43,608 bases of DNA. Origin: Atractiella rhizophila. Lineage: Eukaryota. Shown piece by piece: positions 39,377 through 42,242 of this stretch. Location of the stretch: assembly GCA_021432655.1 (NCBI GenBank), contig MU271292.1, positions 62,001-105,608 on the forward strand, read 5' to 3'. The notes below the pieces were generated by a model. The model worked only from the letters and a program-made list of their open reading frames with translations. It was not told the origin of the DNA and ran no database searches. Every line of letters begins with the position of its first letter. The stretch's first letter is position 1. The position numbers and the translations under genes are program-made.

Positions 39377-42242
39377 ATGGCGGCAATTGAAAGCGCTGAA
39401 ATATCTGGGGAAGAGCTCAAGCAGAATACGGTCATCGTCGTCCTTGGAGCCTCGGGCGATTTGGCTAAGAAGAAGGTGCGTATCTCCTTTGTCTCATTGC
39501 ATTATCGTCATCTTGTCAGCATCGTGTTGTTTTGCGAGTTGGGGTGATGGGACGATAATTATGGACAGTGTGACATCAAATGCTTCTTTCCATGCTTCTC
39601 GCAACGATAAGCGATTTCGGTACTTTCTTACATACATACAGGGTATATGATGCTTATCGTTCAAGCGCTAGAGCGCTAACAAGCTAGATTGAGGCAGAGT
39701 GGTGATCGGTCATCAGCAACATATTCCTCTTTGCGTCTGTTTGCTTTTCTTGTGCATCCATCAACCAGCTCCTCTCATTTCGAAGAGTTGCATACATAAT
39801 GGCGTTGCGATATGAACATTATCGGCATCCCACTTGCTTTCTTCCTTCTCAGACTCTCCCCCGAGGCCTTCAACCTTCCTCTCCAACCTACACGGCCACA
39901 AGCCCCAAAACCCCAGCTAGAGCACAGGTTTTCGGTGGCACCTGGACTGCTGTTCACTGTTCACGTTCTTACCCCGCCTCACACTTATCCAACCATTATC
40001 CGATAACCAATCTCCCGAACTCAATTACTAGTCTACATTCTTAATTTCGGATAAAGAAGGATACGTTGCTAACATGATTCTGCTGTTTTGCGATAGACAT
40101 ACCCCGCCCTGTTTGGTCTCTACTTCAATGGATTCCTCCCCGAGGGATTACACATTGTAGGATATGCGAGAACCAAAATGGATCACGATGTAAGTCTCAG
40201 ATTACCCATCCCATCCACCCATCTCCCCTCCGATCCTGTCCTTTCAAGGGATAGGTGGAATGTGGACCGCCACATTTACTGTCACTTACTGATGACATTG
40301 CTTGCGCTGGCCAACAGGAGTACCTAAAGCGAATCACGCAATACATCAAGACCCCCATCCCCGCTCAACAGCAAAAGCTGAAGGAATTCCTCACCATTTG
40401 TACTTACGTTTCTGGCATGTCACCCTCTTTCAACCCAAAGAGTTTCGGCTGATCCTATACTTCGTTGTGGTCAATAGGGCAATACGATAAAGACGACGGG
40501 TTCCAGGATTTGGAGAAAGAGCTCCAGCGGATCGAGAGCGGTTATAAGGGCAAAGAGCGCAACGTATGTGATTTCATCCTTTTCCCATCGTTTCGTCTCA
40601 TTCAGATTCCTGGCGACTCTGTGGGGAAATAGCGTATATTCTACATGGCCCTCCCTCCCTCTGTCTTCATCCCAGTCTCTAAAGGATTGAGGAAGAATAA
40701 CCACACTAGTGCTGGAATCAATCGGATCGTGGTCGAGAAACCTTTCGGGAAGGACCTGGCGAGCAGTAGGGAGATGATGGGTGAGCTGAAAGCGCTCTGG
40801 ACCGAGGACGAGGTTCGTTTCCACCACCATTTGCGTACCTAAGAGGGGTAATTGATCGTGATGGTGGGCATGAACAGACCTACCGGATCGACCATTACCT
40901 TGGTAAGGAGATGGTGAAGAACCTCCTCATTCTCAGATTCGGAAACGTCCTTCTGGACCATTCGTTCAACAAGCACCTCATCTCGAATGTCCAAATCACT
41001 TTCAAGGAACCATTCGGAACTGAGGGAAGGGGAGGTTACTTTGATGAGTTTGGAATTATCAGAGACGTGATGCAAAACCGTTGGTTTCCCCCTTGGAATA
41101 TCGAGCTTCATTGCTGATGTGCCTTCGGCTGGGCGCAGATCTACTCCAAGTCCTTTCCATCCTTACGATGGAACGACCCGTGTCTTTCTCCGCTGAGGAT
41201 ATCAGGGACGAGAAGGTGAAGGCTTTGAGGTATATCGCGCCGTTGAGAAAGGATCAAGTCCTCCTTGGACAATATGTTGGTAATGGGGAGAAGCCTGGAT
41301 ATCTCGAAGATGACACTGTGCCTAAAGGTCAGTTTGCTCCTGTCCAATACCTATAAGAAAGTTGTGTAGCTGACAATGTGGGATATCACAGGATCCATCT
41401 GTCCCACTTTCGCTGCTATCGTTATGTACATCAACAACCAACGGTGGGAGGGGGTTCCGTTCATTCTTAAAGCCGGCAAGGGTACGCTTCCCGTTATACA
41501 TCGTTACTACATCTTGTTAATGTGTGATCTTGGACTACAGCTTTGAACGAACAAAAGACTGAAATTCGAATCCAGTACAAGGACGTGACCCAAGGAATCT
41601 TCAAGGACATCGCCAGGAACGAGCTTGTCATCCGAGTCCAACCTGGAGAGGCAGTCTACCTCAAGATGAACGCGAAAGCACCTGGTCTTCATATGCGCAC
41701 CGTGCCAACGGAAATGGACCTGACGTATAAGAGGAGGTTCTCGGATCTCAGGATCCCCGAGGTCAGCCTTTTCATCTGTCTCCCGTCGTCCATTTTGATT
41801 GAAGGATGTGTGGATGTCGATGTGTAGGCATACGAAGCTTTGATCCTCGACTGTTTCAAGGGCGACCACTCCAATTTCGTCCGAGATGACGAACTCGATA
41901 TCGCCTGGAAGATCTTCACCCCCATCCTTCACTGGATCGAAGGAGAGAAACCGAAGCCGCTCCCTTATAAGTACGGAAGTCGCGGACCCGAGGAACTGAC
42001 GGAGTATATTCACAAATTCGCAGATTACAAGAGGAACGACCGGTAAGCATCATCCTTACTCTTTCTCCTCCCTGCCTGCGAGGAGGAGTCACCACTCTAA
42101 AGGCAGTTTATACATGGCTGAGAGGTCCTTAGGCCGGGACAGAAGCCAAGGTTATGATTAGGATTGGATACTGATGTCGTCTGCTTGTGTTGACAGTGGC
42201 TACAACTGGCCTCGTACTCAGGTTTCGCAGGGGAATGAATAA
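39377..42242 (+). CDS. ZWF1: Glucose-6-phosphate 1-dehydrogenase, multi-exon
   Basis: [110 protein letters not shown]; stop TAA 42240-42242. Confidence 0.98.

Follow-up and report, generated by a model that had tools for sequence, protein, structure and literature searches.

The last intron of the gene that encodes glucose-6-phosphate dehydrogenase (G6PD) in Atractiella rhizophila, a root-associated fungus of the Pucciniomycotina, is spliced to its distal acceptor in the contigs of all four RNA runs, and the public protein of this gene that ends in -PRL (P0001) is faulty at two places besides its C-terminus. An AG further upstream in the same intron, at position 42132 of the window (the whole stretch of 43,608 nucleotides that was analysed), opens a short reading that ends with -QKPRL and a stop, and the initial annotation had proposed that this reading gives rise to a cryptic peroxisomal isoform. 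We tentatively take the proximal AG and its PRL reading to be an unused coincidence, the intron to be ordinary and the public -PRL protein to be an error, although our confidence in this reading stays somewhat below even. In such a scenario the intron would be efficiently removed, with the spliceosome using the CTGAT motif and then the first AG behind it, which would yield the normal cytosolic enzyme. The AG at 42132 together with its -QKPRL reading would be incidental, a side effect of the abundance of AGs in the intron, and the database protein would be a gene-prediction error to which no isoform corresponds.

The assignment of the gene is based on both domains of the enzyme, as the public model P0001 scored 367.7 bits for G6PD_C (PF02781, cut-off 27) and 125.8 bits for G6PD_N (PF00479, cut-off 22.1), and with both Pfam domains above the curated cut-offs the gene is a glucose-6-phosphate dehydrogenase. 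Using the translation of exon 10 (41828-42040) as query, 630 matching proteins were obtained among 636 candidates. Among the best 120 of these 630, the closest match was P0001 itself (100% identical, source name 'glucose-6-phosphate 1-dehydrogenase [Atractiella rhizophila]'), followed by proteins with an identity of 75-78%. Residues 1-62 of exon 10 align with residues 436-497 of human G6PD, and R52 of the exon corresponds to human R487. A metagenome scan, in which 80 loci were kept, contained no Atractiellomycete, and a close relative was found neither among the protein matches listed (best 78%) nor among the metagenome loci (best 78-83%).

The gene model is derived from assembled RNA contigs of four public runs (X19, X1, X3 and X8), which were placed on positions 39200-42600 (Table 1). 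All ten splice junctions are present in the contigs of X1, X3 and X8, and eight of the ten in those of X19. The introns measure 621, 128, 63, 69, 65, 59, 64, 59, 66 and 154 nt in the order of the gene, so that the description of the last intron as long for the locus holds insofar as it is the second longest of the ten, whereas intron 1 exceeds it by far. The reading of the locus in the initial annotation, with a phase-2 donor at 42043, a distal AG at 42196, a proximal AG at 42132 and a tail R-PGQKPRL that stops at the TGA at 42155-42157, was reproduced in every detail by inspection of the sequence and by scripted translation.

Table 1. Features of the G6PD gene of A. rhizophila and of its last intron (positions refer to the window).
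Feature	Position	Strand	Description
G6PD coding region	39377..42242	+	11 exons, 505 aa, open joined frame
Exons 1-6	39377-39475, 40097-40189, 40318-40414, 40478-40563, 40633-40812, 40878-41079	+	RNA contigs
Exons 7-11 (coding)	41139-41327, 41392-41481, 41541-41761, 41828-42042, 42197-42242	+	RNA contigs
Intron 3, GC-AG type	40415..40477	+	GCATGT...AATAG; joint 40413->40477 (2 ambiguous bases), 4/4 runs
Exon 10	41828..42042	+	Ends ...ADYKRND + CG of a split codon (phase 2)
Last intron	42043..42196	+	154 nt, GTAAGC...ACAG; joint 42041->42196 (cut +1), 4/4 runs
Proximal candidate acceptor AG (cctTAG/G)	42131..42132	+	Use would give a 90-nt intron; contigs without use in 4/4 runs
Candidate alternative tail	42133..42157	+	G fills R codon, then PGQKPRL, TGA 42155-42157
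CTGAT, likely branch point of the distal acceptor	42171..42175	+	About 21 nt upstream of the acceptor; putative, from the motif
Exon 11, coding part	42197..42242	+	T fills R codon; normal 14-residue tail with GYNWP, TAA 42240-42242

A comparison of P0001 with the RNA-supported model revealed that the first 60 residues are missing from the public protein, including the nucleotide-binding motif, which is present in the RNA-supported model. The match of G6PD_N on P0001 begins at profile position 41 because exon 1 is absent from it. In addition, P0001 carries a W in place of CTYVSG at the RNA-proven GC-AG intron, and its C-terminus reads -PRL as the gene model takes the proximal acceptor. We read P0001 as a faulty ab initio prediction, and in view of its other faults the -PRL end of this model carries no weight as evidence for an isoform.

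The choice between both acceptors can be followed in the RNA contigs. The junction 42042/42197 was found in the contigs of all four runs with word depths of 4881, 10.6, 13.3 and 8.3, the depth of contig cover over 42050-42163 was zero in each of them, and loose contig ends were absent at both 42042 and 42133. Splicing to the distal acceptor thus dominates. The junction 42042->42133 was seen in none of the four runs, but this count refers to assembled contigs, which drop rare variants, and hence does not equal a site that is never used. Nevertheless, a contig with retained intron 1 was kept in X19 at a depth of 27.5, which indicates that some low-level forms do survive assembly. Furthermore, a search of short assembled-transcript proteins yielded 18 proteins, the best of them 75% identical, with no Atractiella fragment of any kind among them, let alone one with the -PRL tail. 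We tentatively infer that the proximal site is without purposeful use.

Both the missing junction and the missing fragment speak against a real peroxisomal isoform, a possibility that we take seriously but consider doubtful. It would mean that a minority of transcripts uses 42132, that the last 14 residues are replaced by PGQKPRL and that the resulting enzyme works in peroxisomes. With its -PRL end and the K at -4 as a weak PTS1, the subunit would be bound by Pex5 and imported either alone or dimerised with a normal subunit, and the imported G6PD, as proposed initially, would supply peroxisomal NADPH, thereby replacing the PTS1-like end that was lost from the normal tail. The NADPH supply of fungal peroxisomes is settled only in part, and its known routes include peroxisomal isocitrate dehydrogenase and the pentose phosphate enzymes of Candida. 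A transcript spliced in this way would have its stop codon in the last exon, a position at which nonsense-mediated decay is not expected, and this is in favor of the isoform.

The sequence context of the two acceptors is different. As judged by eye, all ten confirmed introns end in YAG, and most of them contain a motif of the YTRAY kind (CTGAT, CTGAC, CTAAC or TTGAT) 17-28 nt before the AG. In the last intron only the distal AG has such a CTGAT at the customary distance, and it is the first one downstream of this motif. Upstream of the proximal TAG, the near-match CTAAA is 32 nt away with two GAGs, at 42122 and 42124, lying in between, and another near-match, CTGAG, is located merely 11 nt upstream; seven other AGs precede 42132 within the intron. 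The branch-point match of the proximal acceptor thus appears weak, which counts against the isoform. It is also conceivable, though improbable in our view, that the proximal TAG behind its short pyrimidine run is used occasionally as splicing noise, that the truncated product is unstable and has no role and that its -PRL end arose by chance. In favor of this, the proximal acceptor shares the YAG form with the confirmed ones and was picked by the ab initio predictor behind P0001, but the contigs show its use in none of the four runs.

To what extent a PTS1-like end is unusual for such an intron was estimated with a PTS1 set of the yeast type, [A/S/C/P][K/R/H]L. Of the 12 internal AGs that lie at least 20 nt from the donor in the last intron, only the one at 42132 leads to a tail of this set; the AG at 42150 shares its stop codon and the protein would end with -DRL. 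When the interior of the intron was shuffled 5000 times with its dinucleotides preserved, at least one tail of the form [SACP][KRH]L was obtained in 0.74%, one of the form [SAC][KRH][LM] in 0.58% and one of the form x[KR]L in 6.2% of the cases. Of the 2739 tripeptides that precede a stop anywhere in the window, 12 fit [SACP][KRH]L. The PTS1-like tail is therefore an uncommon coincidence for one intron, but less so if every intron of the 43 kb window could have been inspected in the same way. The rarity in the shuffles supports the isoform and counts against noise with a tail of pure chance.

The candidate tail fits the PTS1 consensus [A/S/C/P]-[K/R/H]-L as quoted in PMC13343957, with K at -4 and with P and G just upstream. 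The assumption that PRL with an upstream basic residue is a PTS1 variant is in line with data on the Histoplasma catalase CatP, which is itself partly peroxisomal and whose last three residues, -PRL, directed GFP or mNeonGreen to Pex5-dependent puncta with some cytosolic signal left, according to the available parts of PMC10470777 and PMC13343957. These data make -PRL a functional but weak fungal PTS1 tripeptide, and the residual cytosolic signal seen with CatP would suit dual targeting. This case shares the identical tripeptide with the Atractiella candidate, whereas it concerns another protein from the Ascomycota with a constitutive signal, and the -PRL of Atractiella would be spliced in.

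Additional support for the isoform comes from the C-termini of other fungal G6PDs. We pooled 218 fungal homologues from two listings, the best 120 of 630 matches to exon 10 and 120 of 134 matches to the tail of a Puccinia striiformis model, and applied the plant-derived patterns x[KR][LMI], [SA]y[LMI] and [SA][KR]z as they are quoted in PMC12125578. Among the matches listed, 166 of the 188 full-length fungal G6PDs end with a PTS1-like tripeptide, typically -SNL, -ASL, -ANL or -NKL. Chytrid enzymes end with -PRL, -PKI or -PKM (e.g., P0189 and P0190), and -PRL is the natural C-terminus of some G6PDs of chytrids and Mucorales (P0189, P0190, P0233). The normal tail of Atractiella, -GNE, belongs to the exceptions without a PTS1-like pattern, and a compensating spliced isoform would make sense in the light of this difference.

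What the short form would lose is an argument on the opposite side. The normal tail had been called conserved, and a comparison with the fungal homologues confirmed this for GYNWP but not for the remainder of the tail. A Y-x-W motif is found within the last 25 residues of 188 of the 218 fungal homologues among the matches listed, and the printed tails indicate by eye that most homologues without it stop at the position of the Atractiella last intron. W501 of the fungal homologue P0083, the tryptophan of GYNWP, pairs with residue 509 of human G6PD. Therefore, the motif equivalent to human Tyr507/Trp509 is encoded by exon 11 of the normal isoform and is absent from the candidate -PRL isoform. 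In the human enzyme the C-terminal residues Phe501, Tyr503, Tyr507 and Trp509 hold the structural NADP+, the C-terminus is disordered in the absence of this ligand and W509A is grouped with class I mutants associated with an activity loss of more than 90%, as stated in the available text of PMC9303983. We infer that the loss of Y-x-W from the structural NADP+ pocket would harm the fungal enzyme as well, which argues against a working isoform.

The lack of a close relative in which conservation of the tail could be followed, the best identity being 78-83%, also counts against the isoform. The orthologous last intron could be modelled at nine environmental basidiomycete loci, where it is always in phase 2 and 42-125 nt long, and none of the nine internal AGs in these nine introns of distant basidiomycetes produces a PTS1-like tail. 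The rust fungi offer a parallel in favor of the isoform. The gene model P0027 of P. striiformis ends with ...GYN-SILGIPDLTPLQQSNGPKL, the last residues being -GPKL, and the gene model P0140 of Melampsora larici-populina ends with ...GYR-QMASPISPVKL. Transcript-derived proteins of rust-like fungi end with ...GYRWPVQPAN (P0008), ...GYKWPVQSARS (P0139) and ...GYKSV (P0089). All five diverge at one codon, which is the site of the phase-2 intron in other basidiomycetes, so that the -GPKL and -PVKL forms split from P0008 and P0139 exactly there. Alternative x[KR]L tails are thus seen in public models from three lineages of the Pucciniomycotina whose normal end is not of the PTS1 kind; the rust parallels are gene models, however, and weigh less for this reason. 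P0089, which represents a cluster with 13 members, appears to retain the last intron, which suggests that the rust-like last intron may not always be cleanly removed in these relatives, and this observation fits the view of proximal splicing as noise.

There are several precedents for such isoforms. The initial annotation had referred to peroxisomal isoforms of glycolytic enzymes made by alternative splicing in fungi such as Ustilago, and the accessible portion of PMC3798809, referring to Freitag et al. (2012), indeed describes GAPDH of U. maydis and PGK of Aspergillus nidulans as gaining a PTS1 through alternative splicing. Like these enzymes, the Atractiella candidate is cytosolic and belongs to central carbon metabolism, and its PTS1 would arise from a splice at the 3' end of the coding region in a minor isoform. 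A difference is that the isoform of U. maydis GAPDH carries a C-terminal extension and has been localised, whereas the Atractiella tail, known from sequence alone, would replace 14 residues including Y-x-W. In Candida albicans, Gnd1 acquires a PTS2 by splicing, and a peroxisomal location was observed for Zwf1 and Sol3 (Strijbis et al., 2012, as cited in the same portion of PMC3798809). Here the pathway and even the enzyme are the same, as Zwf1 is G6PD, and a member of the pathway is spliced; on the other hand, splicing in Candida affects Gnd1 and provides an N-terminal PTS2, while the candidate in Atractiella is G6PD with a C-terminal PTS1. Finally, the cytosolic G6PD5 and G6PD6 of Arabidopsis (-PTL>) have a weak PTS1 and may enter peroxisomes as homo- or heterodimers, and in Poaceae one G6PD variant has an extension with a stronger PTS1 (both from the available text of PMC12125578). 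The Arabidopsis enzymes resemble the candidate in having a weak, non-canonical C-terminal PTS1 on G6PD, but they carry it on the normal C-terminus in a plant, and in Atractiella it would be on a spliced alternative in a fungus. No report of a fungal G6PD that is given a PTS1 by splicing was found in a search of the literature, for which the candidate lists of Freitag et al. may also be relevant.

Other explanations for the length of the intron or for a targeting signal were also considered. A hosted non-coding RNA was rejected, since no Rfam match at E<=1 was obtained in 39300-42450 and the fold had a z of 0.61, with 141 of 200 shuffles folding equally well or better; the intron length is therefore not explained by a hosted RNA. 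Retention of the intron as a route to a PTS stops at once (...NDR), and read-through of the TAA yields RGSTS before the next stop. An N-terminal extension or a PTS2 can be dismissed as well, as an in-frame stop is located 12 nt upstream of the ATG and no PTS2 pattern occurs in the first 33 residues. The idea that the PRL reading is the relic of an ancestral terminal exon is not supported, given the stops of the PRL frame at 42098-100 and 42119-21 and the lack of a Y-x-W remnant.

Taken over all fungi, the C-termini allow for a broader view, which seems rather unlikely to us. Partial targeting of G6PD to peroxisomes by way of a weak PTS1-like end may be old and widespread in fungi, and Pucciniomycotina lineages whose normal last micro-exon no longer has this end may keep the signal on a form spliced to another 3' site of the phase-2 last intron. 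The lost normal ends would be represented by -GNE in Atractiella and by -PAN and -ARS in rust-like fungi, the spliced ends by -PRL, -PKL and -VKL, and normal subunits could be brought into peroxisomes in dimers with a tagged one. If true, the targeting signal would have moved from a constitutive to a spliced position and G6PD would be new among the cryptic spliced PTS1 isoforms.

If the -PRL form is not real, the public G6PD record of A. rhizophila is still mis-modelled, and a PTS1 screen across proteomes would call this enzyme peroxisomal on the wrong grounds. If it is real, G6PD would stand beside GAPDH, PGK and 6-phosphogluconate dehydrogenase among the enzymes that a hidden signal directs to two destinations, and the pattern seen in fungi would provide a testable account of how hidden signals persist or get replaced.

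The public G6PD record of Atractiella rhizophila, P0001, is mis-modelled when set against the gene at window 39377-42242. It lacks the first 60 residues, which are encoded by exon 1 together with a portion of exon 2 and include [10 protein letters not shown], and at the position of intron 3 it carries a W where the gene of the window has CTYVSG. The C-terminal end differs as well, reading -PGQKPRL in P0001 versus [14 protein letters not shown] in the window gene.

Intron 1 is about ten times as long as is usual for this locus. It was retained in one assembled contig of the public RNA run X19 (39446-40124), at a depth of 27.5 compared with thousands for the exons, and a small contig of run X8 lies within it at 39653-39803. 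An Rfam search of the intron returned no match. In the neighboring gene, contigs of runs X3 and X8 join 42462/42463 to 42547/42525 with CT..AC ends, which equals GT..AG on the minus strand, and a Pfam search of three ORFs from this region and strand gave no match.

Introns of the G6PD gene and the neighboring gene in the window
Feature	Position	Strand	Description	RNA evidence
Intron 1	39476-40096		621 nt	
Intron 3	40415-40477		GC-AG intron, GCATGT...AATAG	contigs of 4/4 runs
Region with the neighbor gene of G6PD	42394-43608	minus		joint in X3 and X8 contigs

Across the four public RNA runs (X1, X3, X8 and X19) approximately 40 single-base differences were found, which shows that several strains or haplotypes of A. 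rhizophila are present in the public data. In addition, one X1 contig departs from the gene at 41940 and continues into 169 unlike letters; we read this break as the G6PD of another fungus fused at a conserved stretch.

The last G6PD intron was modelled in nine other basidiomycete loci (L020, L022, L023, L027, L029, L033, L046, L050 and L059 of the metagenome scan), and it is a phase 2 intron in all of them. As it lies 1-4 codons upstream of the conserved W, the (Y)xWP...L end is encoded by a micro-exon of about 10-15 codons. The codon of this intron is also the point from which five rust or rust-like proteins diverge: the models of Puccinia striiformis (P0027) and Melampsora larici-populina (P0140) end in -GPKL and -PVKL, respectively, both without the W-P motif, and the rust-like proteins from assembled runs end in -WPVQPAN (P0008), -WPVQSARS (P0139) or -GYKSV (P0089).

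Counting tripeptides of the pattern x[KR][LMI], [SA]y[LMI] or [SA][KR]z, we found a PTS1-like end in 166 of the 188 fungal G6PDs bearing Y-x-W among the matches listed (P0001-P0236; best 120 of 630 and 120 of 134). Fitting examples are -SNL, -ASL, -ANL and -NKL, and in chytrids -PRL, -PKI and -PKM. A literature search found no paper on a weak C-terminal PTS1 as a general trait of G6PD in fungi. Judged from these C-terminal sequences, a weak PTS1 may be a feature of fungal G6PD in general.
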